A stretch of 64,000 nt of DNA, from contig JBAZUH010000001.1 in assembly GCA_041661545.1 (NCBI GenBank), positions 147,877 to 211,876 on the forward strand, in the 5' to 3' direction. This DNA comes from Candidatus Staskawiczbacteria bacterium (GTDB lineage: Bacteria; Patescibacteriota; Minisyncoccia; Minisyncoccales; Staskawiczbacteraceae). Positions 3,936 through 46,582 of the stretch are shown here, piece after piece (the stretch's first letter is position 1; every line of letters starts with the position of its first letter). A model generated the notes under the pieces. It saw nothing but the letters and a program-made list of their open reading frames with translations. It did not search any database and was not told the origin of the DNA. The translations under genes were made by a program, and so were the position numbers.

Positions 3936-3963
3936 GGCTTGATGAAAATCGGGCCCTTTTTTT
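3936..3963 (+). terminator. intrinsic terminator of cassette I0
   Basis: GGCUUGA-UGAAAA-UCGGGCC stem (two G.U pairs) followed by C + 7 T. Confidence 0.6.
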
Positions 3964-4057
3964 ATGCCTGTGCACAAGTCTGTTTTTATATAAAAATGCT
4001 TTTACTGACCTGTGGATAACTATATTAAAATAGCTCTATTTAAGACTATTTTTGACA

Positions 4058-4136
4058 GTGGGGCAGGGGTGTTGACTAGGTGCCATGAAGTGGACTATAA
4101 ATAAGGAGAAGTGGGGAGATGTGGATAAATGTGGGA
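4058..4136 (+). promoter_or_regulatory. putative MraZ operator (GTGG[G/A] direct repeats)
   Basis: GTGGG/GTGGA boxes start at 4058, 4090, 4111, 4121 and 4131. The last three are spaced exactly 10 nt apart, just downstream of the -10 and upstream of mraZ. Confidence 0.6.
4072..4101 (+). promoter_or_regulatory. sigma70-like promoter of mraZ operon
   Basis: TTGACT (4072-4077), 18-nt spacer, TATAAA (4096-4101). Confidence 0.55.
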
Positions 4137-4178
4137 AAACTGGTAAAATAAGAGTATAACTAAAATAAATATATTTTC

Positions 4179-4610
4179 ATGTTAATTGGTCAATACGAAC
4201 ATACAATTGATATAAAAAAGCGATTAGCCCTTCCATCTAAATTTAGAGGAGAGTTGGGCGAAAAGGTGATTGTTACAAAGGGAGTAGAGAACTGCTTGAT
4301 TGTTTATACAGAAAAAGAATTTTTAGTAATTTCTGAAAAATTAAGTAATTTAACTATTAGTCAACCAGAAGCTAGGGGATTTGCAAGAACATTTTTAGCT
4401 TCAGCTATGGAAATAAATTTAGATAAATTAGGAAGAATATTAGTTCCAGACTATTTAAAAAAATATGCAGGGTTAAATAAAAATGTTGTTATTTGCGGAT
4501 TGTCTAATAGGTTAGAAATATGGGATTTGGAAAACTGGAATGCTTGGACAAAAGAAACAGAAAAAGGAGTTAGTGATATGGTTTCTAAATTAGGAGGGTT
4601 AGGAATATAA
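4179..4610 (+). CDS. mraZ: transcriptional regulator MraZ
   Basis: 143 aa; duplicated SpoVT/AbrB-like halves (DIKKRLALPSKFR ... DKLGRILVPDYL); first gene of the dcw-type operon. Confidence 0.95.
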   Translation: MLIGQYEHTIDIKKRLALPSKFRGELGEKVIVTKGVENCLIVYTEKEFLVISEKLSNLTISQPEARGFARTFLASAMEINLDKLGRILVPDYLKKYAGLNKNVVICGLSNRLEIWDLENWNAWTKETEKGVSDMVSKLGGLGI

Positions 4611-4615
4611 AAAAT

Positions 4616-5503
4616 ATGATACATACAGCTGTTCTTAAAAAAGAAGTTTTAGAAGGTCTTTCTCCAAAACAAAATGAAAACTTTATTGATTGCACAGTAG
4701 GTGAGGGGGGCCATGCAGAAGATATTCTTAAAAAAAATGGACCAATAGGAAAAGTGTTAGGTATAGATTTAGACCCACAGCAAATTGTATCTAGCCATTG
4801 GTTAGAAGCAATTTATAAAGATAGAGTTGCATTGGTTAACGATTCTTATACGCACATTACAGAAATTGTTGAAAGAAAAGATTTTAAACCAGTTAATGGC
4901 ATTTTATTGGATTTGGGAATGTCTTCTGTGCAATTAGACAAGGCTCATAAAGGTTTTTCTTTCAAAGTAGATCAAGGGATAGATATGAGATACAACGACG
5001 AAACGGGATATCTTACAGCAGAAAAAATTGTAAATGAATGGCCTGAAGAAAAAATTGAAGAAATGTTAGAAGAATATGGAGAAGAAAAATTTGCCAGAAA
5101 AATTGCTAAAAGTATTGTAGAGCAAAGAAAGCTAGGAAGAATTAAAACAACATTTCAACTTATAGAAATTATAAAAGATTCTACGCCTAGCGCATATTGG
5201 GGAGGAAAAATTCATTATGCAACTAGAACATTTCAAGCATTAAGAATTGCAGTTAACGACGAACTGGAAAATATTAAAAAAGTATTGCCACAAGCAGTTT
5301 CAATTTTAGAGCCAGAAGGCAGGTTAGTGATAATATCTTTTCATTCATTAGAAGACAGAATAGTTAAACAGTTTTTAATAGAAGAATCAAAAAAGGGAAC
5401 AATAAAAATATTAAACAAAAAACCACTAACAGCTTCCAGAGACGAGCTTGGGAAAAACCCCCGCTCAAGATCTGCAAAGTTGAGAGTGGCTATAAAAATA
5501 TGA
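4616..5503 (+). CDS. rsmH: 16S rRNA (cytosine1402-N4)-methyltransferase RsmH
   Basis: 295 aa; DCTVGEGGH, LLDLGMSS, SFHSLEDR motifs; follows mraZ. Confidence 0.95.
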   Translation: MIHTAVLKKEVLEGLSPKQNENFIDCTVGEGGHAEDILKKNGPIGKVLGIDLDPQQIVSSHWLEAIYKDRVALVNDSYTHITEIVERKDFKPVNGILLDLGMSSVQLDKAHKGFSFKVDQGIDMRYNDETGYLTAEKIVNEWPEEKIEEMLEEYGEEKFARKIAKSIVEQRKLGRIKTTFQLIEIIKDSTPSAYWGGKIHYATRTFQALRIAVNDELENIKKVLPQAVSILEPEGRLVIISFHSLEDRIVKQFLIEESKKGTIKILNKKPLTASRDELGKNPRSRSAKLRVAIKI

Positions 5504-5883
5504 CAACAGCTATATTAAGCTTAGGCAAAGCACAAAAAAGAATACAAAGTAGAATACAAACACAAATTGATTCTATAGAAATTCCTACTATAAATTGGAA
5601 ATTATTATGTATTGCCGGATTCTTTATGAGTTTAATGCTGTTGGTTTTTTATGTTTGGCAAATAGGCAACTTAACTAAGAGCTATTATTTGGTATCTGGA
5701 TATGAAAGACAAATTAGTAAACTTTCTGATGAAAATAAAAATTTACAAATTTCTTTTGCAGAAAATAGTTTTATGGAGCAAGCTATGGTAAGAATGCAAG
5801 AATTAAATTTTCAAAAAGCTACATTAATAAAATATGTGCACGTATTAGATTCTGAAACTCAAACAGCATTAGCAAACAAATGA
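5500..5883 (+). CDS. FtsL-like cell division protein
   Basis: 127 aa with a single TM helix then a coiled-coil-like region; lies in the position of ftsL between rsmH and ftsI; start and stop overlap both neighbours. Confidence 0.5.
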   Translation: MTTAILSLGKAQKRIQSRIQTQIDSIEIPTINWKLLCIAGFFMSLMLLVFYVWQIGNLTKSYYLVSGYERQISKLSDENKNLQISFAENSFMEQAMVRMQELNFQKATLIKYVHVLDSETQTALANK

Positions 5884-7616: not shown

Positions 7617-7620
7617 AAAA

Positions 7621-7646
7621 CACCTCGAGAAGTTCGAGGTGTTTTA
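7621..7646. terminator. bidirectional hairpin terminator between ftsI and tRNA-Glu
   Basis: CACCTCGA-loop-TCGAGGTG flanked by an A-run and TTTT. Confidence 0.7.
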
Positions 7647-7650
7647 GATG

Positions 7651-11131: not shown

Positions 11132-11437
11132 ATGATAGCAATAATAAAAACTGGCGGAAAGCAATATTTGGTTCAGCCAGGAGACAAAATAAAAGTAGAA
11201 AAGTTATTAAAAGAAGTAGGAGAAGAAGTTGTTTTCTCTGATGTTTTATTAGTGGAAAAATCTAAGAAAGTAGAAATTGGAACACCTTTTGTTACAGCTC
11301 AGGTTCATGCAAAGGTTTTAAAACATGGAAAGGGAGATAAAATAATAGTTTATAAATACAAACCAAAGAAAAGAGAAAGTAGAAAAATTGGTCACAGACA
11401 GCCATATACAGAAGTGGAAATTACAGGAATTAAATAA
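11132..11437 (+). CDS. rplU: 50S ribosomal protein L21
   Basis: MIAIIKTGGKQYLVQPGDKIKVEKL is a canonical L21 N-terminus. Start moved to the internal ATG at 11132 because the longer ORF covers a TTGACG..TAAGAT promoter. Confidence 0.9.
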   Translation: MIAIIKTGGKQYLVQPGDKIKVEKLLKEVGEEVVFSDVLLVEKSKKVEIGTPFVTAQVHAKVLKHGKGDKIIVYKYKPKKRESRKIGHRQPYTEVEITGIK

Positions 11438-11443
11438 AATTTT

Positions 11444-11467
11444 AAAAACCCCGCATTGCGGGGTTTT
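11444..11467 (+). terminator. intrinsic terminator after rplU
   Basis: AAAAA-CCCCGC-ATT-GCGGGG-TTTT. Confidence 0.8.
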
Positions 11468-11472
11468 ATATT

Positions 11473-12243
11473 ATGACAAAAGAAGTAAAATGGCTTCTAG
11501 ATGAGAAGTATAACGGCAAAAAAACAGAAAGTTTTTATAAAGATGTTAAAAGGCTCGAAGCTGGTGAGCCGGTTGATTATGTAATAGGATTTACTGAGTT
11601 TTTGGGTTGTAAAATTGATTTATCTAAAAAACCTTTAATACCACGACCAGAAACAGAATATTGGGTATGTGAAGAGATTAAGAGAATTAGTCGCGTTTTT
11701 GGCGAACGCCAAAAACGCGACTTTTTTGCCTTAGACATGTTTGCGGGGTCGGGGTGCATTGGAATTGCTATTTTGCGCCACGTGAAAAATGTGAAAGTTA
11801 TTTTTGCAGATAAAAGCCAAGATTGTGTTAAGCAAATAAAAATTAATCTTAAAATAAACCATGTCAAAAAGGGTTTTATTGTGCGACAATCAGATATATT
11901 TAGTAATATAAAAGAGAAGGCCGATTACATTTTCGCTAATCCGCCATATATTCCAACAACACGCAGAAGTAGGGTTGGAAAATCTGTTTTAAAATTTGAA
12001 CCGCACAAAGCTTTATTTGCCGGCAAAAATGGACTATTTTTTATAAATAAATTTTTAAAAGATGCCAAAAAATATTTAAATGCCGGTGGAATAATTTTTA
12101 TGGAATTTGATGGTTTGGCAGGCTCGTCACATGCCCCATCGCAGAAAAAAGAAATAGAAAAATTAATAAAAAAATATAAATATTCTAAATGGGAATTTAA
12201 AAAAGATCAATATAACCGTTGGCGCTGGGTCGAAATACAATAA
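11473..12243 (+). CDS. prmC: release-factor glutamine N5-methyltransferase PrmC/HemK
   Basis: 256 aa; SAM-binding DMFAGSGCIG and catalytic NPPY (FANPPYIP). Confidence 0.85.
   Translation: MTKEVKWLLDEKYNGKKTESFYKDVKRLEAGEPVDYVIGFTEFLGCKIDLSKKPLIPRPETEYWVCEEIKRISRVFGERQKRDFFALDMFAGSGCIGIAILRHVKNVKVIFADKSQDCVKQIKINLKINHVKKGFIVRQSDIFSNIKEKADYIFANPPYIPTTRRSRVGKSVLKFEPHKALFAGKNGLFFINKFLKDAKKYLNAGGIIFMEFDGLAGSSHAPSQKKEIEKLIKKYKYSKWEFKKDQYNRWRWVEIQ
11878..11887 (+). repeat. ATTGTGCGAC polar motif copy 1
   Basis: Exact 10-mer inside prmC (read as I-V-R). Confidence 0.9.
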
Positions 12244-12244
12244 T

Positions 12245-12273
12245 TTGACGGAAATTGTCTAATCTGTTAATGT
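12245..12273 (+). promoter_or_regulatory. sigma70-like promoter of cassette I1
   Basis: TTGACG (12245-12250), 17-nt spacer, TAATGT (12268-12273). Confidence 0.45.
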
Positions 12274-12347
12274 TTAGATAAGTTATCATCTCGCGACTGA
12301 GATGCAAACACAAGCAGTTCGTTGTCAACCAAAATAGAGGAAGTAAA

Positions 12348-13697
12348 ATGAAGACGCAAGACATGGAACACAACAGAAAAGGCGCTATAATCGCCGAAGG
12401 TAAGACCAAGAGAATTCACAAAGTTCTTGGTCGACCAGGCTTGGTTATTGTTGAGTCGAAAGACGATATTACTGCCGGCGACGGGGAAAAACATGACGTC
12501 ATCAAAAACAAAGCTGAGCTGTCCACCGCAACAACATGTAATGTGTTTTCGTTGCTCAGGCATTGCGGCTTGCCGGTTGCCTTTGAGGACCAACTAAACC
12601 CCAAGGAATTCTTAGCTCCGGCGCTGGATATGATTCAATTGGAAGTTGTGGGGCGTCGTGTTGCAACGGGCTCTTACCTCCAGCGCAACCCGCACGTTCC
12701 CAATGGTACAGTGTTTCCACGCCTCGTGACCGAGTTCTACTTGAAGACGCACGGCTGCGAGTTCAACGGACACAAGTTCCCGAAAAGTACGCCAGGGAAA
12801 TCCTACGACGATCCGTACATGAAAATCGTCGGCGAAGAAGTCTGGCTCTATAATGCGCACATCCCGTTGGCTACGCAGGAGCCATTCCTCAAGCTTCCGC
12901 TTATCGAGATTTTCCCGAAAAACAACGGGGAAGAAGTGATGGCACGCATGGCTGCGTTGAATACGCTTGCTTTCCTGATCATTGAGAAGGCCTGGAAAAT
13001 CCTCGGCTATGACATGTTGGATTGGAAAATCGAATTTGGCTGGTACAACGACACGCTTTGTATCGGAGACGTGATCGACGCTGATTCGTGGCGTGTGATG
13101 AAGGATGGGCAGAAATTGTCCAAGCAGGCTTACCGTGATAATGAAGGGCTTACTGTGATGGAAAAAGTCCTACGCAGGACGGCAACACTCACCGGTTGTT
13201 TTCGGATTCCCGAGCAGTCTTTGGTGGTATGGAGTGGTTCGCCAAACGATGATACGAACCCCTTCATGACGGCTTTCAAGCTATTCACCGACTCAGGAAT
13301 TCCCGGATTGAACATTCATTGCTTCGTCAGATCTGCTCACAAAGAAACGATTCAGTCGGCGTTTATGTTACAGGACATGGAATTTGGTTGTAAAGGCCTT
13401 GGTGATTCCACCCCATTGCCCGATCCGGTTATCGTCACTAACGTTGGAAGGAGTAATGGTTTGGGACCTATGTGTGCGGCGAATAGCATGGTGCCGGTTA
13501 TCAGTACAGTTCCCGACCCGGTGGATGTCAACTCATCGTTGCGCATGCCCAGCGATGTTCCGCTGATGGTGGTTACCGATCCTAAACTCGCCGTTCAGGC
13601 CGCGCTCAAGATTCTTGCCGGCAGAAATCCTTTATTATGGGCTCTTTTGCGCCTGAAGCAGGAAGAGCGCACGACTAATGCGATTCTGCTTCCGTAA
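12348..13697 (+). CDS. bifunctional SAICAR synthetase / class II AIR carboxylase (PurC-PurE fusion, PAICS-like)
   Basis: 449 aa and GC-rich. N-terminal half carries PurC motifs (EGKTK, SKDDITAGDG, VVGRRVATGSYLQRNP, DWKIEFG, VIDADSWR). C-terminal half carries PurE motifs (RSAHK, GRSNGLGP). The domain order and several blocks match what I recall of animal PAICS. Confidence 0.85.
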   Translation: MKTQDMEHNRKGAIIAEGKTKRIHKVLGRPGLVIVESKDDITAGDGEKHDVIKNKAELSTATTCNVFSLLRHCGLPVAFEDQLNPKEFLAPALDMIQLEVVGRRVATGSYLQRNPHVPNGTVFPRLVTEFYLKTHGCEFNGHKFPKSTPGKSYDDPYMKIVGEEVWLYNAHIPLATQEPFLKLPLIEIFPKNNGEEVMARMAALNTLAFLIIEKAWKILGYDMLDWKIEFGWYNDTLCIGDVIDADSWRVMKDGQKLSKQAYRDNEGLTVMEKVLRRTATLTGCFRIPEQSLVVWSGSPNDDTNPFMTAFKLFTDSGIPGLNIHCFVRSAHKETIQSAFMLQDMEFGCKGLGDSTPLPDPVIVTNVGRSNGLGPMCAANSMVPVISTVPDPVDVNSSLRMPSDVPLMVVTDPKLAVQAALKILAGRNPLLWALLRLKQEERTTNAILLP

Positions 13698-13724
13698 TCG
13701 GTGTAACTCCATTTTTTTATTTTT

Positions 13725-13760
13725 GCCCGCTACGCTTTGCGTTTGCCGGGCTCTTTTTTT
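13725..13760 (+). terminator. intrinsic terminator of cassette I1
   Basis: GCCCG...CGGGC stem with inner ACGC/GCGT, then TC + 7 T. Confidence 0.65.
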
Positions 13761-13778
13761 ATGGTAATATATATTAAT

Positions 13779-14465
13779 ATGCTAGAGAAACAGATAAAAT
13801 TATCACCAAATTCGTTAAACCTTTATTTAGATTGTCCACATTGCTTTTGGTTAGATAAAAATTTGGGCATTAAAAGACCTCCGCCATATCCCTATGCATT
13901 AAATTCTGCAGTTGACGCATTATTAAAAGAAGAGTTTGATACATATAGAGCAAAAAATTTGCCACATCCAATTTTTAAGGAGAACCATATAAAAGCCCAC
14001 TTATTTGGCAACCAAAAACTGTTAAATCAATGGAGGAACAATTTGGCTGGAATAAGATATTTTGATGAAGACTTAAAAGCCACTTTATTTGGTGCTGTTG
14101 ATGATGTTTTAGAATTTGATAATGGTGAACTAGCCCCTTTAGATTATAAATCAACTGGAAGCACAGCAGGAAAAGTTTATGATAGATTTCAGCTTCAGTT
14201 AGATACATATACATTTTTAATGGAAAAAAACGGATACAAAACTCCAAGAAAAGGTTATTTAGCTTTTTATATTGTAGATAAAAGTAGGGGATTTATTGAT
14301 AGATTGCCATTTAGAAAAGAAATTGTAGAAATAGAAACAAATCCATTGGATGTTTATGAAATTTTTAAAGATGCAGTTAAGATTTTAAGAGAACCCCAAC
14401 CTCCAAAACATAGTTTAGATTGTGTTTTTAAAAAGTTTTTAGATGGGGCAAAAAATTTTAATTAA
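13779..14465 (+). CDS. PD-(D/E)XK (Cas4/RecB-like) nuclease family protein
   Basis: N-terminal CPHCFW cysteine pair; D...DYK core (VDDVLEF...LAPLDYKS); QLQLDTY. The start at 13779 (or 13761) was chosen to clear the upstream terminator. Confidence 0.55.
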   Translation: MLEKQIKLSPNSLNLYLDCPHCFWLDKNLGIKRPPPYPYALNSAVDALLKEEFDTYRAKNLPHPIFKENHIKAHLFGNQKLLNQWRNNLAGIRYFDEDLKATLFGAVDDVLEFDNGELAPLDYKSTGSTAGKVYDRFQLQLDTYTFLMEKNGYKTPRKGYLAFYIVDKSRGFIDRLPFRKEIVEIETNPLDVYEIFKDAVKILREPQPPKHSLDCVFKKFLDGAKNFN

Positions 14466-14500
14466 TAGTAATTTAGTGTATAATATAATAAATAATATAA

Positions 14501-16015
14501 ATGAAAATGAAAATTCCTAATTTTTTAAAAAATATATTCACTGACAAGCACAAAAAAAGAAATAGATGGATTGTTGCTATTTTAGTTATAGCTGTATTAT
14601 CATTTTTTGTTTTTGCCCCTAAGGGCGATAATGAATCTATTCAAGCAGGTTTTGTTACAAAACAAAATTTGAAAGAAACGGTTTTATCTACTGGTCAAGT
14701 TGTTAGCTCTACAGACCTTGCATTAAGTTTTCAAAGTGGTGGAGTTGTTACGCGTGTTTCAGTAAAAGAGGGAGATAAAGTTAAAAAAGGAAAAGTCTTA
14801 GCTTCTTTAAATGCAGGCTCAGCTCTTGCTTCTTTAACTTCCGCAAGAGGGGCTTTGGCACAAGCAAAAGCAAACTATGATAAACTAATAGCGGGTGCAA
14901 CATTTAATGATATTAATTCTGGCGTGGTTGTTATAGAATCTAGAAGGATTGTTTTAGATGGAGCATATAACGATGCTTTAAATGCTATTAGCGACGCCCT
15001 GTTAAAATCTTATAATGCTTTAACAGCGGTAACTAATTTGCAAAATACTTATTTTACTGGATTTGACCAGGCTGCCAAAGATGGAAAAGCACAAATTCAA
15101 GCTGCACTTTCTTCTTTAGAATTATCTTCAAACAAAGCAAAAAGTAGCAAATCTTCGGTAGAAATTGATAGCGCCGTATCTACTACAGTTTATTCTTTAA
15201 ACACAATTTCAAGTGCTTTAAAAGTTGTTCGTGATATGTTAGACGAAACTTATTATTATGGCAGAGTGCCTGAATCGGAAAAAACCGCAATTGATACGCA
15301 AAGAACAAACATTAATACTGCCCTAACAAGTGTTACAAATTATCAGCAGGCAGTATCAAATGCAAAAATATCATTATTACAAAGTCGTCCAGAAATTGAT
15401 TTAGCAAAGGGGCAAATATTGTCGGCGCAGGGTCAGGTTGATGCAGCTCAGGCTGTTTTGAATAATTTAATTATTGTAGCTCCAGCTAACGGAACAATCA
15501 CGCAAATAGACGTCAAGGTAGGTGAACAAGCCACCCCACTAAAAACAGCTATAATTTTGCAGGACATAGGCAATCTTTATGCAGAGGCTGATATTAGCGA
15601 AGCCAATATTGCAAGTTTACAAATTGGTCAAACAATAGATTATACTTTAGATGCATTGGGGCCAGACCAGCATTTTAGCGGAAATGTTTTAACAATTAAT
15701 CCTTCATCTACGGTTATTTCTGGGGTAGTCAATTATTTGATAAAAGGTAGTTTAGACAATATTCCAAATATAAAGCCGGGGATGACAGTTAATATCACAA
15801 TTTTAGTTGCAGAAAAAAACGATGTTTTAGCTGTTCCATCAACAGCAGTAATTAATAAAAATAATAAGCAATACGTAAGAGTTATTGATGACTCAAAGAA
15901 AAAAACTTATCACGAAGTAGAAGTAGAAACAGGTTTACGAGCAGATGGCGGTTTGATAGAAATTATCTCTGGATTAAGCGAAGGCCAAGAAGTTATTATT
16001 TATATGAAAAAATAA
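14501..16015 (+). CDS. efflux periplasmic adaptor (HlyD/MacA family)
   Basis: 504 aa; N-terminal TM, biotinyl-lipoyl-like hairpin flanks, long coiled coil, C-terminal beta-barrel; precedes ABC ATPase and permeases. Confidence 0.8.
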   Translation: MKMKIPNFLKNIFTDKHKKRNRWIVAILVIAVLSFFVFAPKGDNESIQAGFVTKQNLKETVLSTGQVVSSTDLALSFQSGGVVTRVSVKEGDKVKKGKVLASLNAGSALASLTSARGALAQAKANYDKLIAGATFNDINSGVVVIESRRIVLDGAYNDALNAISDALLKSYNALTAVTNLQNTYFTGFDQAAKDGKAQIQAALSSLELSSNKAKSSKSSVEIDSAVSTTVYSLNTISSALKVVRDMLDETYYYGRVPESEKTAIDTQRTNINTALTSVTNYQQAVSNAKISLLQSRPEIDLAKGQILSAQGQVDAAQAVLNNLIIVAPANGTITQIDVKVGEQATPLKTAIILQDIGNLYAEADISEANIASLQIGQTIDYTLDALGPDQHFSGNVLTINPSSTVISGVVNYLIKGSLDNIPNIKPGMTVNITILVAEKNDVLAVPSTAVINKNNKQYVRVIDDSKKKTYHEVEVETGLRADGGLIEIISGLSEGQEVIIYMKK

Positions 16016-16019
16016 TAAT

Positions 16020-16736
16020 ATGGCTCTTATCGAAGTTGATAATTTAAAAAAAGATTATATAAACGAAGAAGTTATTACACGTGTTTTGCATGATGTAAGT
16101 TTTAAGATACAAGAAGGAGAATTTGTGGCAATTATGGGGCCCTCTGGTTCTGGAAAATCAACATTAATGCATATTCTAAGTTTTTTAGATAGAGAAACCG
16201 GTGGTATTTATAAGTTTGAAGGAGAAAATACAAAAGATTTTAACGACGATTATTTAGCAAAATTAAGAAATGAAAGAGTTGGGTTTGTTTTTCAATCTTT
16301 TAATTTGCTAGCACGTACAACTGTTTTAGATAATGTAAAATTACCGTTAGTTTATAGCAAGAAAAAAGACCTTGATAAATTAGCAGAGAAAGCTTTAGAA
16401 TCGGTTGGTTTGTCTCATAGGTTAAATTATTTAACTAATCAAATTTCTGGCGGAGAAAAACAACGTGTGGCTATTGCCAGAGCCTTGGTAAATAATCCCG
16501 CAGTAATTTTTGCTGATGAGCCCACAGGAAATTTAGATTCAAAATCTGGCAACACGGTGATGTTTCTTTTGCAAAAATTAAATAATGCAGGACACACTAT
16601 TATTTTAGTTACACACGAAACTGATACAGCCAACCATGCCAAAAGAATTATTAGAATTAAAGACGGCACAATTATTTCAGATGAAAAAGTAGCAAATAGA
16701 ACAATTGCTAGTGCAGAAAAAGATTTAGTTAAATAA
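16020..16736 (+). CDS. ABC transporter ATP-binding protein (MacB/LolD type)
   Basis: Walker A GPSGSGKST, signature LSGGEKQR, Walker B IFADEPTGNLD. Confidence 0.92.
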   Translation: MALIEVDNLKKDYINEEVITRVLHDVSFKIQEGEFVAIMGPSGSGKSTLMHILSFLDRETGGIYKFEGENTKDFNDDYLAKLRNERVGFVFQSFNLLARTTVLDNVKLPLVYSKKKDLDKLAEKALESVGLSHRLNYLTNQISGGEKQRVAIARALVNNPAVIFADEPTGNLDSKSGNTVMFLLQKLNNAGHTIILVTHETDTANHAKRIIRIKDGTIISDEKVANRTIASAEKDLVK

Positions 16737-22860: not shown

Positions 22861-22886
22861 AAAATAGGGGATAGCCCCTATTTTTT
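22861..22886 (+). terminator. intrinsic terminator after VirD4-like gene
   Basis: AAAATAGGGG-ATAG-CCCCTATTTTTT. Confidence 0.8.
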
Positions 22887-22997
22887 GTTTGGGCTTAACT
22901 ATTGACATAATATAATAAATGTTATAAAATCTAAATGCTGGACATTGACAATACAGATCGTTTAGAACACGGCCACCCCGTGTGCGATCACACATAA

Positions 22998-23624
22998 TTG
23001 AAAATGTCCCCACCGAATACCACCATGAAAACGTTCCAAAAACTCCGTCAGAAGATCCTCGGACAAAGCTGCCTGGGAAGCCTTTTGGTCATTGCCGTGT
23101 TCGCCGTGATGATCATCATGATTTGTGGCGTGCACTGGCCTACGACGGCACTTGCTGCTCAGACACCGCAATCCGTAGATATCAAGGCCAAGGAGTTGTT
23201 TCGGCCGACCGAGGCGATGTTTCACGTGCAGAATGAGGACATCGCCGTTACCGTGCTTCGGCCAATTCTCGATGAGTCCTCAACCAAGGACCACTTAGTC
23301 ATCGTCGGTTACAACCCGACGGTGGTTATCCCCGACTATATGGAGTTCGTCGGTACGCCCCAGTGTCACTGGGATGGTATTCACGAAAGTACGCGCTGGG
23401 CATACACCATTTATGTCCGGCATGGATCCACTGGTCGCCTGGCGACTCGCCAGATTAACCTCGCGGATTTCATGTCGGCCTACCCGGATGCGTTGGGATC
23501 CAAGCTTGTTCGTCTAGGCGTCATCTCCGGCAACAATTCCGTGGAGTTTACCACGATGCCCTTTAGCCGGATGAATCTTGATCAGGGGATGAACCCCTGG
23601 GATTTTGTCGAGACCGAGGAATAG
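22998..23624 (+). CDS. membrane-anchored hypothetical protein (GC-rich cassette I2)
   Basis: 208-aa GC-rich ORF. Start ambiguous (TTG 22998, ATG 23004 or 23025). One TM helix (LLVIAVFAVMIIMICGV), then a ~150-aa domain with no recognised family. Confidence 0.5.
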   Translation: MKMSPPNTTMKTFQKLRQKILGQSCLGSLLVIAVFAVMIIMICGVHWPTTALAAQTPQSVDIKAKELFRPTEAMFHVQNEDIAVTVLRPILDESSTKDHLVIVGYNPTVVIPDYMEFVGTPQCHWDGIHESTRWAYTIYVRHGSTGRLATRQINLADFMSAYPDALGSKLVRLGVISGNNSVEFTTMPFSRMNLDQGMNPWDFVETEE

Positions 23625-23705
23625 TCGGCTCTCCATTTTTCGCGTGTGATGTGTGTGTAAGGGTGGGGGTAGCTACTGATGCGTTTGTAGCGCCCCCACC
23701 CAAAA

Positions 23706-23756
23706 CCCCGTAGAAATTAATGGCTTGCTCCGTTTAATTTGCGGGGTTCTTTTTTT
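23706..23756 (+). terminator. intrinsic terminator of cassette I2
   Basis: CCCCG...AAATTAA-loop-TTAATTT...CGGGG, then TTC + 7 T; preceded by a separate strong hairpin at 23661-23701. Confidence 0.65.
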
Positions 23757-23796
23757 GTATAAAAAAACCGCCTTTCAGCGGGTTTTTATTTTTAAA

Positions 23797-25141: not shown

Positions 25142-25169
25142 TTGACTAATTGGCATAACATGATATAAA
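25142..25169 (+). promoter_or_regulatory. sigma70-like promoter of cassette I3
   Basis: TTGACT (25142-25147), 16-nt spacer, TATAAA (25164-25169). Confidence 0.5.
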
Positions 25170-25205
25170 GAGTATGCAAAAGGAACTTCGTCCTTTCGTC
25201 GCCCA

Positions 25206-25448
25206 ATGGGCAAACGTAACCCGCAACTTGAAAATCAACAAATCATGAACTCAATTTTGGCCTATACACTCGTTGTCCGTTTCGACAGCCCCCCGTGGTT
25301 AGCAGTGGTGATGATTGCAGTAGCGCTGCTCGGCTTTGTGGCATCTCGCTTCAAAAGCGAGGCGGCCAAGTATGTGGTTGTCGTCACGTACCTACTTTCA
25401 GCCGTGCTTTTGGGGGTGGTGCTTTCCTCGCTGTCCATCACTCACTGA
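25206..25448 (+). CDS. small two-helix membrane protein (GC-rich cassette I3)
   Basis: 80-aa GC-rich ORF (alternative start 25245) with two hydrophobic helices; own promoter and terminator; no SD seen. Confidence 0.4.
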   Translation: MGKRNPQLENQQIMNSILAYTLVVRFDSPPWLAVVMIAVALLGFVASRFKSEAAKYVVVVTYLLSAVLLGVVLSSLSITH

Positions 25449-25468
25449 TTTTCATTCACGTGTTTTAT

Positions 25469-25505
25469 GCCCTTAGGTTCCTATACCTTTCGGGCTTCTT
25501 TTTTT
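25469..25505 (+). terminator. intrinsic terminator of cassette I3
   Basis: GCCC..AGG-loop-CCT..GGGC, then TTC + 7 T; ends nearly identical to the I5 terminator. Confidence 0.55.
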
Positions 25506-28586: not shown

Positions 28587-29204
28587 ATGATAAAATTAGT
28601 TTATTTTGATTATGGAGGAGTCATTAAAGACGGATATCCGTTAAAAAAATATTTCCATAAAATTTGTGATGTTTCATTAGAGGAAGCTGAAAAAACAAGT
28701 TTATCAATAAAGACATTCGGCAATAAAGCCAGCAAGGGCCTAATAAGTGACGAAGAATTCTGGAAAGAATGTTCTATAATTTTAGATAAAAAACTGCCAG
28801 ATAATTACTTAGATTTGGCTATTGGTGAATATAGAGCAAATTTTATTTTTAAAACTGACATTTTAAATTTAGCGAAAAAGCTAAGAAATCAGGGCATTAA
28901 AACGGGCATTCTATCAAATATTTTTAAATTTGAAGCAGATGTAATCAGGGGTAACGGTGGCTATGATGAGTTCGATCCGACAATCTTGTCTTATGAAGTA
29001 GGGTTCAGGAAGCCGGAGGCTGAAATATATAGAATGGCCATAGATAGAGCGAGAGTTAAGCCAGAGGAATGCATATTTATAGACGACAAAAAAGAAAATC
29101 TTATTTTACCAGAACAATTAGGTATAAAAACAATATTATTTAAAAATCCAAAACAGGTTATAGACGATGTGTGGAAAATTGTTGACGTAAATAAGAATGA
29201 ATGA
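28587..29204 (+). CDS. HAD-superfamily hydrolase
   Basis: Start reset to ATG 28587 (MIKLVYFDYGGV carries HAD motif I DxD); later FIDDKKEN motif IV. Confidence 0.75.
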   Translation: MIKLVYFDYGGVIKDGYPLKKYFHKICDVSLEEAEKTSLSIKTFGNKASKGLISDEEFWKECSIILDKKLPDNYLDLAIGEYRANFIFKTDILNLAKKLRNQGIKTGILSNIFKFEADVIRGNGGYDEFDPTILSYEVGFRKPEAEIYRMAIDRARVKPEECIFIDDKKENLILPEQLGIKTILFKNPKQVIDDVWKIVDVNKNE

Positions 29205-29240
29205 TAATATTGAGCTACATTGAAAAATTTAAAATCTTTG

Positions 29241-29467
29241 ACTTGGGTCCCCGGCGAAAGCTTAGGGGGTTGGGCCCAACGAGATGGCTTGTGCGCTAGT
29301 GCAGGCCCGGCTTCCTCCGTAATCATAGGATAACTGCTAAATCAAGTAAATTGATGAGTCAGTAAGCGACCCGCTTGGCGGGTAATTGGGGTGGTACCGC
29401 GAGATTTTAAGACTTCTCGTCCCTGTTCTCCGATGTTGCATCGGAGCATAGAGATGAGAAGTTTTTT
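29241..29467 (+). promoter_or_regulatory. T-box riboswitch leader (tRNA-sensing antiterminator)
   Basis: Canonical T-box sequence AATTGGGGTGGTACCGCGAG (29384-29403). Stem III ACCCGC-TTG-GCGGGT lies immediately 5' of it. An antiterminator is possible (GGG[bulge GTGGTACCG]CGAG...CTCG-T-CCC). The competing terminator is CTTCTCGTC...CTCCGATG-TTG-CATCGGAG...GATGAGAAG + T6 (29413-29467). A long GC-rich Stem I is closed by ACTTG/CAAGT (29241-29347). Confidence 0.8.
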
Positions 29468-29504
29468 ATTTGTAAAGAACATTAACAACCAACAAACCAA
29501 AATT

Positions 29505-29711
29505 ATGCACGACGAAGATCTGCCCAAGGATAATCTCGATATGACGTGTACTGAATGTGGAGTAGTGGCACCGACGTGGCGATTGAAAAAAGCCATAGGT
29601 GGTAATCACTTAATAGTTCGGCATAATTTTTGTCCGATTGTTAGAAGCGGGAAGATTGTGCAGCTGTGTATGCCATGCAAGCTGAAAAGCTTGCCTAAAG
29701 GGACACTTTAA
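29505..29711 (+). CDS. 68-aa zinc-ribbon-like protein (GC-rich cassette I4)
   Basis: ATG 29505 lies 38 nt after the T-box terminator. CxxC (CTEC) ... CxxC (CMPC) plus a further Cys. Own terminator at 29700-29728. Confidence 0.45.
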   Translation: MHDEDLPKDNLDMTCTECGVVAPTWRLKKAIGGNHLIVRHNFCPIVRSGKIVQLCMPCKLKSLPKGTL

Positions 29712-29728
29712 TGTGGCCCTCTTTTTTT
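29700..29728 (+). terminator. intrinsic terminator of cassette I4
   Basis: GGGACAC-TTTAAT-GTGGCCC (one mismatch), then TC + 7 T; the stop codon sits in the loop. Confidence 0.55.
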
Positions 29729-35215: not shown

Positions 35216-35290
35216 TTGAATCTTTTTTGTTTTAGGGTTATCATTTAAAATTGTAAATTTGAAATTAAAAATTCCGCGAAGGCGGCGCGG

Positions 35291-35345
35291 GCCCATAGTA
35301 AATTGTATTCGTCCCGATGTACATCGGGAAGGGCCAGATTCAATT
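35291..35345 (+). pseudogene. tRNA-like 5' fragment (truncated in T-loop)
   Basis: GGGCCCATAGTAAAT is identical to the first 15 nt of tRNA-Ala at 35603. It is followed by a D-arm-like segment, a perfect 18-nt palindrome TCCCGATGTACATCGGGA in the anticodon-arm position (6-nt rather than 7-nt loop) and GGCCAGATTCAATT (a T-arm 5' half). No 3' half is present. Confidence 0.35.
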
Positions 35346-35348
35346 AGT

Positions 35349-35612
35349 ATGTATTTTTTATATATTTTACAAAGTGTTAAAAACAATAGATATTATATTG
35401 GGAGTACAAATAATTTGGATAGACGCTTATCTGAACATAACGGAGGGAAAACCAAGTCATTAGAAAATTTAAGGCCACTAAAAATAGTTTTTAGTAAAGA
35501 ATTTGAAAAAGAGATAGACGCTAGACGAATAGAAAGAAGATTAAAAAAATTTAAAAATAGGAATATTATTGAAAATATTGTAAAAGAGCAGAGGATAAAA
35601 ATGGGCCCATAG
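35349..35612 (+). CDS. GIY-YIG nuclease family protein (small, UPF0213-like)
   Basis: 87 aa from ATG 35349: YFLYILQSVKNNRYYIGSTNNLDRRLSEHNGG is the GIY-YIG signature. The last 10 nt including the TAG stop overlap the 5' end of tRNA-Ala. Confidence 0.85.
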   Translation: MYFLYILQSVKNNRYYIGSTNNLDRRLSEHNGGKTKSLENLRPLKIVFSKEFEKEIDARRIERRLKKFKNRNIIENIVKEQRIKMGP

Positions 35613-35673
35613 TAAATCGGTATTACGCCTCCATGGCATGGAGGAGGGCCGGGTTCGATTCCCGGTGGGTCCA
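35603..35673 (+). tRNA. tRNA-Ala (anticodon GGC)
   Basis: Acceptor GGGCCCA/TGGGTCC with the G3:U70 Ala identity pair; D arm GTAA-ATCGGTA-TTAC; anticodon arm CCTCC-ATGGCAT-GGAGG; T arm CCGGG-TTCGATT-CCCGG; discriminator A; CCA not encoded. Confidence 0.85.
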
Positions 35674-35731
35674 CAAACAGGGTGTTCCTGCGATACAGAA
35701 CATTGAAAATCAAGCGAAAGGAAATCACGCC

Positions 35732-35986
35732 ATGCCAACCACGATTGACGCCATTTTGGAAAAATCTGGGGGTTCTTGTCCCTCAAGGCGCCCCGACTGT
35801 TTGCTGTTGTATAAGTATGTGCCCCTTATTTGTTGCGTTAGCAACTTTCCCGATATAAAACTGGATCAAAGGGTTCATGCTTCCCGTGTTGATAGGAATG
35901 GGGAAAATCCTAATAGGGTATATTTAAAGGAAATGGACGGTTGGATTCCGGTGGACCATTTCGATTTAGAGGAAAAAGGAGGTTGA
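35732..35986 (+). CDS. 84-aa Cys-rich hypothetical protein (GC-rich cassette I5, gene a)
   Basis: ATG 35732 preceded by AAAGGA; 4 Cys (C15, C22, C33, C34); the TGA stop overlaps the next ATG (TGATG). Confidence 0.45.
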   Translation: MPTTIDAILEKSGGSCPSRRPDCLLLYKYVPLICCVSNFPDIKLDQRVHASRVDRNGENPNRVYLKEMDGWIPVDHFDLEEKGG

Positions 35987-36246
35987 TGATGGAACCACTA
36001 AAAATTGGAGGACTTATTGAGCAAAAGCATAGGCTAAAAAGCAAGGTCCCCATACTTTTGTTGACTTTTTTCGTAATATACATTCCTTTTCTGGGCAAGA
36101 TTGTCTATGACAGCAGGTCTTTGCCAAATTTTTGGGAACTGGTTCTGCTGGGGGGATTAGCTGTTGTTCCAGTGAGTGCTGGGTTGGTATGCTTTACCGT
36201 TAATATCATGCTAAACCGAAGCAAGCACTTCAGGCCCTTTCATTAA
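35986..36246 (+). CDS. 86-aa two-helix membrane protein (GC-rich cassette I5, gene b)
   Basis: ATG 35986 preceded by the strong SD AAAGGAGG; translationally coupled to gene a; two hydrophobic helices. Confidence 0.5.
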   Translation: MMEPLKIGGLIEQKHRLKSKVPILLLTFFVIYIPFLGKIVYDSRSLPNFWELVLLGGLAVVPVSAGLVCFTVNIMLNRSKHFRPFH

Positions 36247-36251
36247 TTTTT

Positions 36252-36282
36252 GCCCTTGGACATCTCTTGGGCTTCTTTTTTT
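36252..36282 (+). terminator. intrinsic terminator of cassette I5
   Basis: GCCC...GGGC weak stem, then TTC + 7 T; flanks TGCCCTT..GG...GGGCTTCTTTTTTTAT match the I3 terminator. Confidence 0.45.
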
Positions 36283-36848: not shown

Positions 36849-36941
36849 GAAATAAGAAAAAACCGGCACATAGGCCGGTTTTTTAAATAATATAATTATA
36901 TTATTGATTTCTTTAAAATTTTTTAGTAATATTATATTTGT

Positions 36942-40326: not shown

Positions 40327-40362
40327 AAAAACCGTCCGCGACGAAATCGGGACGGTTTTTTT
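40327..40362. terminator. bidirectional terminator between pyrG and rpmA
   Basis: AAAA-ACCGTCC-loop-GGACGGT-TTTTTTT. Confidence 0.8.
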
Positions 40363-41536: not shown

Positions 41537-41560
41537 AAAACCCCGCTTAGCGGGGTTTTT
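41537..41560 (+). terminator. intrinsic terminator after uppS
   Basis: AAAA-CCCCGC-TTA-GCGGGG-TTTTT. Confidence 0.8.
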
Positions 41561-42109: not shown

Positions 42110-42129
42110 AAGGGTGTGGATATCTATGC

Positions 42130-42157: not shown

Positions 42158-42176
42158 TTAGACAATACAATTTAAA

Positions 42177-42308: not shown

Positions 42309-42314
42309 ACGTTT

Positions 42315-43364: not shown

Positions 43365-43374
43365 TATCAAAAAT

Positions 43375-43413
43375 AAAAAACAGCCATGTGCACCGGTGCA
43401 CATGGCTGTTTTT
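43375..43413 (+). terminator. intrinsic terminator after metK
   Basis: AAAAAA-CAGCCATGTGCACC-GGTGCACATGGCTG-TTTTT; a perfect long stem. Confidence 0.85.
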
Positions 43414-43423
43414 ATTGTGCGAC
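43414..43423 (+). repeat. ATTGTGCGAC polar motif copy 5
   Basis: Exact 10-mer immediately after the metK terminator T-run. Confidence 0.9.
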
Positions 43424-43600
43424 AAAAATACCTTTAATTCCGTCGTTTTTTGTTTTAATATAAAGTTATAATATTAAAAGACTTATATCTTAGAGACATT
43501 TTGGATGGCTCAAAACTACTAATATGATTATTTTAAAAAGTTTGTTTTTTCTGTTTGCATTTTTATATAGAAAGAGCAATATTAAACAATAAATATAAAT

Positions 43601-44245: not shown

Positions 44246-44265
44246 TGGTTTAAAGCGTACATATT

Positions 44266-44275
44266 ATTGTGCGAT
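44266..44275 (+). repeat. ATTGTGCGAT polar motif copy 6 (1-nt variant)
   Basis: 9/10 match; 20 nt after the preceding stop and about 14 nt upstream of a TTGACA -35. Confidence 0.7.
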
Positions 44276-44345
44276 ATTTCAGGCATTAATTTGACAAAGT
44301 ATGTAGATTATATAATATACAAGATGTAGGCAACTTGTATTTATT

Positions 44346-45059: not shown

Positions 45060-45060
45060 C

Positions 45061-45088
45061 TTGACACGATATTTATAAAGAATATAAT
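45061..45088 (+). promoter_or_regulatory. sigma70-like promoter of cassette I6
   Basis: TTGACA (45061-45066) starts 2 nt after the ANTAR gene stop; 16-nt spacer; TATAAT (45083-45088). Confidence 0.65.
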
Positions 45089-45100
45089 TAAATTGAAGCT

Positions 45101-45167
45101 GGCACAATGTTGTGTCAACTAAAGCGACAAAGAGGTCTCCTACGCAGGTAGGGGATTTTTGTTGTTT
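45101..45167 (+). promoter_or_regulatory. ANTAR-type leader: two hexaloop hairpins overlapping an intrinsic terminator
   Basis: HP1 is GGCAC-AATGTT-GTGTC (45101-45116). A 7-nt linker follows. HP2 is GCGAC-AAAGAG-GUCUC (45124-45139). Both loops have A at position 1 and G at position 4. The terminator CTCCTAC-GCAG-GTAGGGG + ATTTTTGTTGTTT (45137-45167) shares 45137-45139 with the HP2 3' arm. Confidence 0.65.
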
Positions 45168-45225
45168 AGGCTCATTGAAAACCAATCTTACAGGAACAAC
45201 AACCAGCCAACCAAAGGAGAACCAA

Positions 45226-45453
45226 ATGAACAACTGTCCACTTGCAAAAAATTGCGGAACCAAAAGGTTTTTGGATGATTTCTATGGCGACAGCCACCCC
45301 GATAAGCCTTGCTCGGGCATTTATGCCAGTTGCCACCTCTATATAGCAGACAGAGATGCCCGAGAAGTAGCCGAAGATGCCAAGGACTCGTCCGATCACC
45401 ATTCTGGCGAGCACGCTTCACTTCTGGACAAATTGCTGAGGAGAGCTGGTTAA
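45226..45453 (+). CDS. 75-aa Cys/His-rich hypothetical protein (cassette I6, gene a)
   Basis: ATG 45226 preceded by AAAGGAGAA; Cys at 4, 10, 29 and 36; His/Asp-rich acidic tail; terminator at 45483-45513. Confidence 0.5.
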   Translation: MNNCPLAKNCGTKRFLDDFYGDSHPDKPCSGIYASCHLYIADRDAREVAEDAKDSSDHHSGEHASLLDKLLRRAG

Positions 45454-45482
45454 TAACCATGGTTGATTGATCTCGTCTCTAT

Positions 45483-45513
45483 GCCGCGTTTCCCAAAGCG
45501 TGGCTCTTTTTTT
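45483..45513 (+). terminator. intrinsic terminator after I6 gene a
   Basis: GCCGCG-TTTCCCAAAG-CGTGGC (one G.U), then TC + 7 T. Confidence 0.6.
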
Positions 45514-45593
45514 GACTTTATTGATTTTGTGTTGTAAGTTATACATACTACAACATTGTGTTGTGGCGTTCATTTACAAGTAGAACAACAACT

Positions 45594-46226
45594 ATGAAAA
45601 CACGATATTTACTGATTGGCTTTGTATGCGCATTGGCGCTTGGCTGTCAAAAGCCTGAAAATACTTCGGCAAAAACGGAAAATGTATGGGGTAAATTTGC
45701 AAAGAGCGTTCTTGCAGCCGGGAAGGCCAAAGACGCCGACACATTCGTCAACAAGCTGAGCATGTCCAGCGTTGCCGACCTCGACGCTCTGCTTGAGGAG
45801 CTGAAAAAAGCTAACCCCGAAGTTGAATTTGAGGAGAACGCGGAAAGACCCACGGACGCCGAGATCCGCAAAGAAGCAGAGGCAAACGTGCGCCTCTTCA
45901 TGAACTCGTACGCGGACGTGTTTGACGGCGGCGGTGAGCTTTTTAGTGTTATAACCGCTCAATTCCCCGAGACAAGGGGCACAAACATTTACTCCTTGAT
46001 CATTTGGGCAAAACAAAGCGACGGAAAATTTCGGGGCATCAAGGTCGACAGCGTCTGGAAGAAAGACGACGGCACCATTAAGGTTATGACGTGGACGCAA
46101 CTTAGTGGCTACGAAGCCAGCAAGGGCGCCATCTCAAAAAAGGCCATTCTGGAACGTGACACTGCCGAGGCTTGTAATTACCCAGAGTGGATACAATATA
46201 AAACTGTTTTCACTGACCCAAACTAG
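45594..46226 (+). CDS. putative lipoprotein (cassette I6, gene b)
   Basis: From ATG 45594: MKTRYLLIGFVCALALGC is a lipoprotein-type signal with a lipobox-like LALGC. 210-aa GC-rich ORF; no family recognised. Confidence 0.55.
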   Translation: MKTRYLLIGFVCALALGCQKPENTSAKTENVWGKFAKSVLAAGKAKDADTFVNKLSMSSVADLDALLEELKKANPEVEFEENAERPTDAEIRKEAEANVRLFMNSYADVFDGGGELFSVITAQFPETRGTNIYSLIIWAKQSDGKFRGIKVDSVWKKDDGTIKVMTWTQLSGYEASKGAISKKAILERDTAEACNYPEWIQYKTVFTDPN

Positions 46227-46270
46227 GCGAGCAACTGCTCATTAATAGATGATAATAGGAAAACAAAAAA

Positions 46271-46534
46271 ATGTCACAGTACGTTTTTCCAGTTAGTGAG
46301 GGTGTGGAATGTTTAGTGGGGTGGGATGAGTCCATGCAAACATTCTTCGGCCAAATTTACAGGGTTGATAAAGACGGCGAGCGAGTGGATGCTGAGGAAG
46401 ATGGCACCATTTTATGGGTAGGTCGTCGCCACAATGAAATTAAGTCGGTTTATGTGCTGGCAACGCAACTTAGGCCAAGAGCCGAAATACCATCCAAAAT
46501 ATACGGGGCATTGTTCAAAACTGAGGTCGACTGA
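46271..46534 (+). CDS. 87-aa hypothetical protein (cassette I6, gene c)
   Basis: GC-rich ORF (..LVGWDESMQTFFGQIY..WVGRRHNEI..); resembles small proteins I associate with phage/plasmid hypotheticals, but this is unverified. Confidence 0.5.
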   Translation: MSQYVFPVSEGVECLVGWDESMQTFFGQIYRVDKDGERVDAEEDGTILWVGRRHNEIKSVYVLATQLRPRAEIPSKIYGALFKTEVD

Positions 46535-46555
46535 GATTCCAATTCAGTTGACAAG

Positions 46556-46582
46556 ACCGCGAGTCATCGTGGTTCTTTTTTT
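46556..46582 (+). terminator. intrinsic terminator ending cassette I6
   Basis: ACCGCGA-GTCA-TCGTGGT (one G.U), then TC + 7 T. Confidence 0.65.

Follow-up and report, generated by a model that had tools for sequence, protein, structure and literature searches.

Eight hairpins with a common C+T7 tail at the 3' ends of GC-rich islands in a Staskawiczbacteria chromosome: probable one-directional intrinsic terminators

Why should eight hairpins, standing behind quite different genes of one bacterial chromosome, all run out into a C followed by exactly seven T? The question is raised by a stretch of 64,000 nucleotides (nt), here called the window, which comes from the chromosome of a Candidatus Staskawiczbacteria bacterium (Parcubacteria, in the candidate phyla radiation (CPR) or Patescibacteria) with a guanine plus cytosine (GC) content of 33%. 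An earlier note on this DNA had listed the eight hairpins, each closing a short GC-rich block (islands I1 to I8 in Table 1), and had taken their uniform tail (C+T7) as a sign of one origin or one generating process. The reading preferred in this study, to which we give a probability of about 0.62, is that the eight elements are canonical one-directional intrinsic terminators, that they close independently transcribed, compositionally foreign and moron-like accessory units, and that their tail is convergent. As the elements would then be ordinary terminators, the direct finding is of modest weight. Genomic islands and horizontal transfer are already known in Patescibacteria (PMC12455944), and our literature search found neither a paper joining Patescibacteria with intrinsic terminators nor transcript maps for the Staskawiczbacteria lineage.

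Anatomy and setting of the C+T7 hairpins

The invariance of the tail held in all eight stretches, each of which ends in (C/T)(C/T)C, exactly TTTTTTT, and then A (in five) or G (in three). Every stretch folds into a single hairpin that ends 1-3 nt before the T-run, with a minimum free energy (MFE) of -8.1 to -19.6 kcal/mol and a z of -2.1 to -4.6, and 0-6 of 200 shuffled sequences folded equally well. Canonical terminators consist of a hairpin rich in G/C with a U-rich tract of 8-10 nt behind it, and an upstream A-tract marks the bidirectional type (PMC12207403). In the window, the spacer (C, TC or TTC) together with the seven T gives 8-10 pyrimidines counted from the end of the stem, in agreement with that tract. 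Relative to the stop codon of a + strand open reading frame (ORF), the hairpin starts range from -13 to +79 nt, none of the hairpins lies within another ORF, and all eight occupy the 3' end of their unit on the sense strand, as intrinsic terminators do. The stems had been described as imperfect and free of an A-tract, which is accurate: G.U pairs and mismatches are present, and an upstream A-tract was seen at none of the eight.

The window holds 29 C+T7 sites in all, 18 on the + strand and 11 on the - strand. A compact hairpin was found at only eight of these, with -6.9 to -18.9 kcal/mol in a constrained scan, while the remaining 21 reached -6.4 kcal/mol or weaker, and this from long sloppy folds. 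For background, a hairpin of -7.5 kcal/mol or lower stands before 130 of 2141 runs of four or more T (about 6%), from which about 1.8 would be expected among 29. A GC-rich block ends, on its 3' side, at each of the eight terminators, and the 300 nt upstream exceed the window mean in GC content by 0.05 to 0.22.

When the eight terminators were aligned, C+T7 was the sole invariant part and the mean column identity was 48%; the hairpins themselves are not alignable. Two of them, those at 25469 and 36252, had been singled out as near-identical, and they do have a TGCCCTT 5' end and an GGGCTTCTTTTTTTAT 3' end in common; their loops differ, and homology of the genes before them (those of I4 and I6b) was rejected, as the proteins are without similarity. 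An assembly artefact was rejected as the source of the pattern too, since two independent Logan contigs of run SRR18595301 are identical to the window, matching it gap-free at 100% over 11362-16172 and 52029-63703 and reproducing the T7 run at 13754. Look-ups by exact protein, meant to follow this genome past the window, gave nothing but short Logan contigs from within it.

The earlier note had set these hairpins against six terminators of the backbone, that is, of the housekeeping genes (clpB, mraZ, efp, tyrS, metK, gltX and a mur/fts cluster). We found the six (at 11444, 22861, 40327, 41537, 43375 and 36857) as described, each with an A-tract, a near-perfect stem and a run of 4, 6, 7, 5, 5 and 6 T, respectively, and none with C+T7. 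The whole backbone class of Table 1 displays an upstream A-tract, a Watson-Crick stem and four to seven T, and three of its members stand between convergent genes. C+T7 thus closes eight of eight islands in the window and none of about seven verified backbone terminators.

Relatives of the window's VirD4-like gene, at 60-83% identity, were detected in 80 genomes, mostly labelled Staskawiczbacteria. For a census of the lineage, 79 related loci (about 1.2 Mb; labelled L002, L010, L082 and so on) were scanned for hairpins with a T-run just 3' of ORFs. The 75 terminators after GC-rich ORFs comprised 5, 9, 21, 22 and 18 with runs of 4, 5, 6, 7 and 8 T, and 10 had an A-tract and 13 had C+T7. For the 177 terminators after backbone ORFs the corresponding run counts were 69, 47, 38, 14 and 9, with an A-tract in 81 and C+T7 in 6. 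Runs of at least seven T were therefore recorded for 40/75 against 23/177 (p = 8e-11), and A-tracts are rarer (p = 4e-7) and C+T7 is commoner (p = 3e-4) after GC-rich ORFs. Equal commonness of C+T7 after AT-rich genes, which the earlier note had named as the refuting outcome, was not observed (13/75 against 6/177), and the two dialects are real in the window and lineage-wide in the related loci. The more GC-rich the upstream ORF, the longer the mean T-run, which climbs steadily from 4.5 to 6.3. Hairpins with an A-tract harbor 0.49 G.U pairs each, against about 1.0 otherwise, as expected if the former have to fold on both strands.

Composition, promoters and age of the islands

A phage moron, in the concept of Hendrix and Juhala, is extra DNA of deviant GC content with its own promoter and terminator (PMC3594210). 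The islands deviate in composition from their neighbours in the same manner: GC at third codon positions (GC3) is 0.32-0.68 in island ORFs against 0.17-0.26 in backbone genes, and both C and G are elevated at these positions. I1 is only weakly GC-rich (41% GC, GC3 0.32), which is a caveat to the pattern. The contents are heterogeneous, including a PurC-PurE fusion, a T-box with a small ORF, a tRNA with ORFs, and orphan genes. A terminator of their own is present in all eight islands and a clear promoter in about half of them, as matches to 9-12 of the 12 consensus bases precede I3, I4, I5 and I7. With the window and the relatives pooled, the -35 element ATTGACA is 6.9-fold enriched at the 5' edges of GC-rich blocks.

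The islands are set among housekeeping genes, not in a phage or prophage as morons are. Their proteins, which carry the NCBI locus tags WC711_*, gave no Pfam match except for the PurC-PurE fusion (SAICAR_synt and AIRC), and no NCBIfam match. A PHROGs scan of nine island proteins returned nothing informative, with one marginal partial match for the I1 ORF (E = 0.002), and three scans of viral contigs returned no relatives of the island proteins; on these two results a phage origin of the islands was rejected. Neither a common left-end motif nor a target-site duplication was noticed at the islands. A 5' leader motif, ACATTGAAAATCAA, that seemed to be common to I1, I4, I6 and I7 was dropped, as 31 copies occur in the window where 33 are expected, and it is absent among the k-mers enriched at GC-block edges in the pooled window and relatives.

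The sites of I2 to I5 span 2-60 nt in many relatives and 0.3-8 kb, often GC-rich, in others, so that here too these four islands resemble morons, as additional DNA that separates genes which are neighbours in relatives. The I2 site is empty in L021, L029, L055 and L057, the I3 site in about 17 relatives (8-60 nt) and the I4 site in eight (about 40 nt). For the synteny of I6 to I8, a metagenome scan with the GAF-ANTAR neighbour yielded distant, non-syntenic loci only, and syntenic relatives for I1 did not come up either.

Orthologues at the same site were recognized in other species for I2, I3, I4, I5 and I8, and their stems have diverged while their tails range from C+T5 to C+T8 and A+T8. The I2 orthologue of L010 has a C+T7 tail on a different stem and the I3 orthologue of L082 a C+T8 tail; in L005 the promoter and leader of I4 are conserved and the island tail is TTC+T7. 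The arrangement of I5 is conserved with C+T7 in L002 and L012, C+T8 in L007, C+T5 in L005 and A+T8 in L003. The I8 gene pair adjoins the recombinase gene xer in L164 and L165, where the tails are C+T6 and C+T8, respectively; the lipoprotein gene alone adjoins xer in a third relative, and in L166/L167 other genes come next to the pair. Altogether, the orthologous tails have five to eight T and retain the C in 12 of 13 cases.

Fourfold-degenerate sites are 45-49% identical between island orthologues, just as in the flanking genes, which is near saturation, and such near-saturated synonymous sites indicate that the islands are old residents rather than one recent insertion wave. The island proteins are less similar across species than their flanks (63% against 86%, and 76% against 80-86%). 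In two orthologous pairs (12348-13697 with L010 1813-3153, and 23025-23624 with L082 6001-6630), GC3 is 0.59-0.72 in both members, the backbone having about 0.19-0.44. The composition of the islands looks maintained rather than a fading trace of recent transfer.

Three islands deserve separate remarks. The PurC-PurE fusion of I2 has the domain order of PAICS (SAICAR synthetase, then AIR carboxylase). There is a small group of close relatives (67-80% identity), in which both source-named members are Staskawiczbacteria, and the next relatives, of about 425-470 aa, have only 43-48% identity; at the I2 site, various relatives hold other GC-rich purine-like genes (PurC-, PurE- and PurH-like by eye). 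In I3, the untranslated 3' region (3'UTR; window 23640-23756, L082 6655-6768), about 120 nt long, is about 93-95% identical between the two loci, against 49% at the coding fourfold sites. Its first hairpin, GGGTGGGGGTAGCTACTGATGCGTTTGTAGCGCCCCCACCC, shows 100% identity, loop included, a 136-nt stretch folds with a z of -4.5, and no Rfam match was found; this region may be an RNA element of the 3'UTR or a small RNA. The T-box leader of I5 (Rfam match with E = 1.3e-9, under the gathering score) leads to a Cys-rich ORF and a second terminator, not straight to tyrS, which seems to have a promoter of its own; this arrangement is kept in at least five relatives.

Mechanism, objections and alternative explanations

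Under the preferred reading, the nascent RNA would fold into the G/C-rich hairpin, and the next pyrimidine- and U-rich tract of 8-10 nt, (U)(U)C-U7, would leave a weak hybrid from which RNA polymerase frees the transcript. Judged from the anatomy, the elements probably do terminate transcription and would have an insulating role, keeping transcription from island promoters out of the downstream housekeeping gene. Action on one strand would suffice, and this would account for the lack of an A-tract and for the long uninterrupted T-run; G.U pairs would be tolerated, though they amount to A.C mismatches on the opposite strand. The uniformity of the tail would come from convergence, not from inheritance, with slippage shifting the orthologous tails across T5-T8.

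As to the C, in relatives it often forms the 3' half of the closing G-C pair (GGTC before T8 in L165; GGGAC before T7 in L010), and TTC-T7 reads as an interrupted T10. As to the seven T, homopolymer runs of A or T in the window number 592, 267, 108, 14 and 1 for lengths of 5, 6, 7, 8 and 9, and those of the relatives number 1906, 554, 52 and 2 for lengths of 7, 8, 9 and 10, falling off past 8. The window's ratio of runs of eight or more to runs of seven, 0.15, is among the lowest 12% or so of the relatives. Since A/T runs drop sharply past seven, a terminator selected for a long U-run would sit at the practical maximum. Such a ceiling acts in the right direction and may be a partial explanation for exactly seven T; as the full cause, a genome-specific ceiling was rejected, the effect standing at a p of about 0.2 with the terminators themselves excluded.

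Several observations weigh against the preferred reading. The C lies outside the stem in five of the eight window terminators (spacer TC or TTC), and in relatives it precedes just 42% of the hairpin-backed runs of six or more T. The ratio of T7 to T8 is 10:3 in genomes with few runs of eight or more and 18:15 elsewhere (p = 0.2), and the share of C+T7 among the relatives' terminators after GC-rich ORFs is only 13/75. The uniformity of eight out of eight is tighter than lineage statistics predict, nominally at 1e-3 to 1e-6 for a pattern chosen post hoc, and has only a partial explanation. Short T-runs persist in backbone terminators that lack an A-tract (odds ratio 12, p = 2e-10), on which account directionality was rejected as the sole cause of long T-runs. 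The promoters are also incomplete: a scan for at least 9/12 consensus matches found none for I2 and I8, the match of I1 is distant, about 230 nt upstream and beyond an intervening terminator, and that of I6 is weak (9/12) and lies upstream of its tRNA.

The proposal of a shared origin holds that the GC-rich units came from one donor pool, or from one cassette-forming mechanism, and brought their native terminator style with them. It would explain why the terminator style tracks composition so tightly in the window and the relatives and why the units stand as insertions when compared with many relatives, and the GC3 of 0.6-0.7 in orthologues despite near-saturated fourfold sites might stem from repeated import out of a GC-rich pool. 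It also gains from the uniformity of eight out of eight, which is not fully explained otherwise. However, we consider it doubtful, and the claim of one origin or one generating process was not upheld: the hairpins are not alignable, the contents and GC3 values (0.32-0.68) are mixed, and same-site orthologues have diverged stems and variable tails. The lower similarity of the island proteins across species gives no sign of recent transfer, no viral-contig relatives, informative PHROG families, target-site duplications or left-end motif were found in the searches described above, and the candidate leader motif is unenriched. The backbone terminators of GC-richer relatives are without the style of the island terminators, and import from GC-richer Staskawiczbacteria was rejected on that ground.

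A genome-specific requirement would mean that the transcription machinery needs a C at -8 and exactly seven U at weak hairpins, and that selection fixes the tail. The stems are indeed weak (seven of eight at -8 to -13 kcal/mol) and could demand an optimal U-tract, and the window is uniform where the relatives show a wider spread. Yet the verified backbone terminators of the same genome use runs of four to six T with G or A before them, the T-box attenuator of the window has G+T6, and close orthologues have T6 or T8, all of which make this explanation quite unlikely.

The hairpins might instead be recombination sites, attC-like or otherwise targets of the adjacent tyrosine recombinase, with the islands as site-specifically captured cassettes and predicted excision or circle junctions at CTTTTTTT. 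Their imperfect stems would suit this, as would the tyrosine recombinase gene at 46675-47646 (-), which adjoins I7/I8. The attC sites of integrons carry core sites that are conserved (RYYYAAC / GTTRRRY) together with paired R/L boxes, and their cassettes form a tandem, mostly promoterless array. By contrast, the hairpins here are 20-45 nt long and not alignable, without a conserved GTTRRRY core or R/L boxes, and the islands are spread over 43 kb, about half of them with a clear promoter. The recombinase is best matched by XerD/XerC (222 and 215 bits), the integron-integrase model reaching 110 bits against a cut-off of 265, and its gene lies at about 47 kb, at the point where both the GC skew and the orientation of the genes change over, as expected of a chromosome-dimer resolvase. 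The G.U pairs, moreover, imply selection at the level of RNA. The integron reading was rejected on the Xer-like recombinase and the absent core motif and is largely refuted, and recombination sites in general appear very improbable. Hardly credible, finally, is a dispersed family of repetitive extragenic palindromes (REP) or of elements like miniature inverted-repeat transposable elements (MITE), for although the hairpins at 25469 and 36252 have stem ends and tail in common, GCCC/GGGC is the commonest stem core, loops and stem lengths differ, and the alignment of the eight, with C+T7 alone invariant at a mean column identity of 48%, refutes any common consensus.

The preferred reading, of ordinary one-directional terminators with a convergent tail, leaves room for a wider proposal, which we regard as speculative and rather improbable: that Staskawiczbacteria harbor a distinct, persistent class of GC-rich accessory units ('chromosomal morons') at recurrent intergenic hot spots, with an expression grammar of their own. 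Such units may hold a GC3 of 0.45-0.7 in genomes of about 0.2 GC3 despite saturated synonymous sites, and their grammar may pair a strong promoter of the ATTGACA type with a long-U terminator acting in one direction; the uniform C+T7 tail would then be a visible sign of it. If this were true, it would call for ongoing import from an unseen GC-rich pool through an unknown route of cassette exchange, or for a gene-specific force that maintains GC. A compositional decoupling of this kind, if general, would bear on gene gain and retention in ultra-small symbiotic bacteria. In practice, the combination of no A-tract, a long T-run and a G.U-tolerant stem could serve as a marker that flags accessory genes of foreign composition and independent transcription in streamlined CPR genomes, and the genes so flagged are mostly orphans.

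Further elements of the window and comparison with known systems

Table 1. Coordinates of the islands, their terminators and the backbone terminators in the window. In the descriptions, T7 is the run of seven T; spacers are written between the stem and T7.
Feature	Position	Strand	Description	MFE (kcal/mol)	z
I1, ORF	3646-3906	+	86 aa; closed by T1
Terminator of I1 (T1)	3936-3963	+	hairpin GGCTTGAT-GAAA-ATCGGGCC, C, T7 (3957-3963); 29 nt past stop codon	-10.9	-2.6
I2	12246-13760	+
I2, gene	12348-13697	+	PurC-PurE fusion, 449 aa, GC3 0.59
Terminator of I2 (T2)	13725-13760	+	GCCCG..CGGGC + TC + T7	-13.6	-2.6
I3	22902-23756	+
I3, promoter	22902-22930	+	TTGACA-17-TAAAAT
I3, gene	23025-23624	+	orphan 199-aa secreted/membrane protein, GC3 0.68
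I3, 3'UTR hairpin	~23660-23700	+	conserved
Terminator of I3 (T3)	23704-23756	+	AACCCCG...CGGGGTT + C + T7	-19.6	-4.6
I4	25142-25505	+
I4, promoter	25142-25169	+	TTGACT-16-TATAAA
I4, ORF	25206-25448	+	80-aa membrane ORF, GC3 0.60
Terminator of I4 (T4)	25469-25505	+	GCCC..GGGC + TTC + T7	-11.3	-3.1
I5	29182-29728	+	upstream of tyrS (29853)
I5, T-box leader	29229-29427	+	own attenuator terminator to ~29467
I5, ORF	29505-29711	+	68 aa, Cys-rich (zinc-ribbon-like)
Terminator of I5 (T5)	29699-29728	+	AGGGACAC..GTGGCCCT + C + T7	-9.4	-2.6
I6	35603-36282	+
I6, tRNA-Ala(GGC)	35603-35674	+
I6, small ORFs	35732-35986, 35986-36246	+
Terminator of I6 (T6)	36252-36282	+	GCCC..GGGC + TTC + T7; weakest of eight	-8.1	-2.1
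I7	45061-45513	+	with structured leader
I7, promoter	45061-45088	+	perfect, TTGACA-16-TATAAT
I7, ORF	45226-45453	+	75 aa, Cys-rich
Terminator of I7 (T7)	45483-45513	+	GCCGCG..CGTGGC + TC + T7	-12.8	-4.1
I8	45514-46582	+
I8, lipoprotein gene	45594-46226	+	210 aa
I8, ORF	46271-46534	+	87 aa
Terminator of I8 (T8)	46553-46582	+	GACCGCGA..TCGTGGTT + C + T7	-11.5	-3.0
xer	46675-47646	-	Xer-type recombinase gene; adjoins I8 directly
Backbone terminator	11444-11467		A/T-symmetric (bidirectional-style), AAAAA-CCCCGC-ATT-GCGGGG-TTTT
Backbone terminator	7621-7645		same class
Backbone terminator	22861-22886		same class
Backbone terminator	23757-23795		same class; efp
Backbone terminator	36857-36884		same class
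Backbone terminator	40327-40362		same class
Backbone terminator	41537-41560		same class
Backbone terminator	43375-43413		same class

Some further elements were noticed in the window. The 12-mer TATTGTGCGACA occurs in nine copies (with at most one mismatch) where 0.13 are expected, at 11877, 28475, 31490, 42099, 43413, 44265 and 46614 on the + strand and at 48213 and 58604 on the - strand. Its strand flips at about 47 kb together with GC skew and gene orientation, near xer, and both genic and intergenic copies are found. Relatives have about 40 exact copies, every one on the + strand, spread over 29 loci; copies also occur just past the I8 terminators of L164 and L165. TATTGTGCGACA is a candidate for a polar motif, like an FtsK orienting polar sequence (KOPS) or Chi, or for a DNA-uptake sequence. 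A perfect 11-3-11 palindrome, ATAACCGACTAAATTGGTCGGTTAT, lies at 46637-46665, just past the 3' end of xer and at the change of sign of GC skew; it is not a terminator, because it has no T-run, and it is a possible dif-like site.

Upstream of I6, a GIY-YIG nuclease ORF (35259-35612) is flanked on one side by a tRNA-like fragment (35288-35345) and on the other by the intact tRNA-Ala(GGC), and the fragment has GGGCCCATAGTAAAT in common with the 5' end of that tRNA; the site resembles the outcome of an insertion by which the tRNA's 5' part was duplicated. Between clpB and I1, a good promoter (TTGACA-16-TAGCAT, 3389-3416) is followed after about 115 nt by an A/T-symmetric terminator (3530-3557) with no ORF between them, and 3389-3557 may be a small RNA gene. 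GTGGG/GTGGA repeats at 4020-4150, upstream of mraZ (4179-4610), are as expected for MraZ operator repeats.

Compared with known systems, the eight elements come closest in form to the canonical 'L-shaped' intrinsic terminator, of which the E. coli trp attenuator type, GCGGGC-U8, is an example. Both have a G/C-rich hairpin and a U-rich tract on the sense strand past the stop codon, often with a C before the U-run, whereas the stems here are short, imperfect and G.U-bearing and the T-run is exactly seven in eight of eight. The backbone terminators of the window, with A-tract, palindromic stem and T-tract, follow the bidirectional A-tract/U-tract style of the Firmicutes type (PMC12207403), and the island terminators, which lack the A-tract and the Watson-Crick symmetry, are its one-directional counterpart. 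Integron cassettes, like the islands, are small, mostly single-gene units with an imperfect end hairpin and a nearby tyrosine recombinase; unlike them, the islands have neither an IntI-type integrase nor an attC core or boxes and form no array, some have promoters of their own, and the G.U pairs point to a function in RNA. With phage morons the islands have in common that they are intergenic extra DNA of deviant GC with their own terminator, often with a sigma-70-type promoter, and that they encode mostly small proteins of unknown function. They differ from morons in being chromosomal and without phage relatives, in that several have no clear promoter, and in that several are old residents common to related species.

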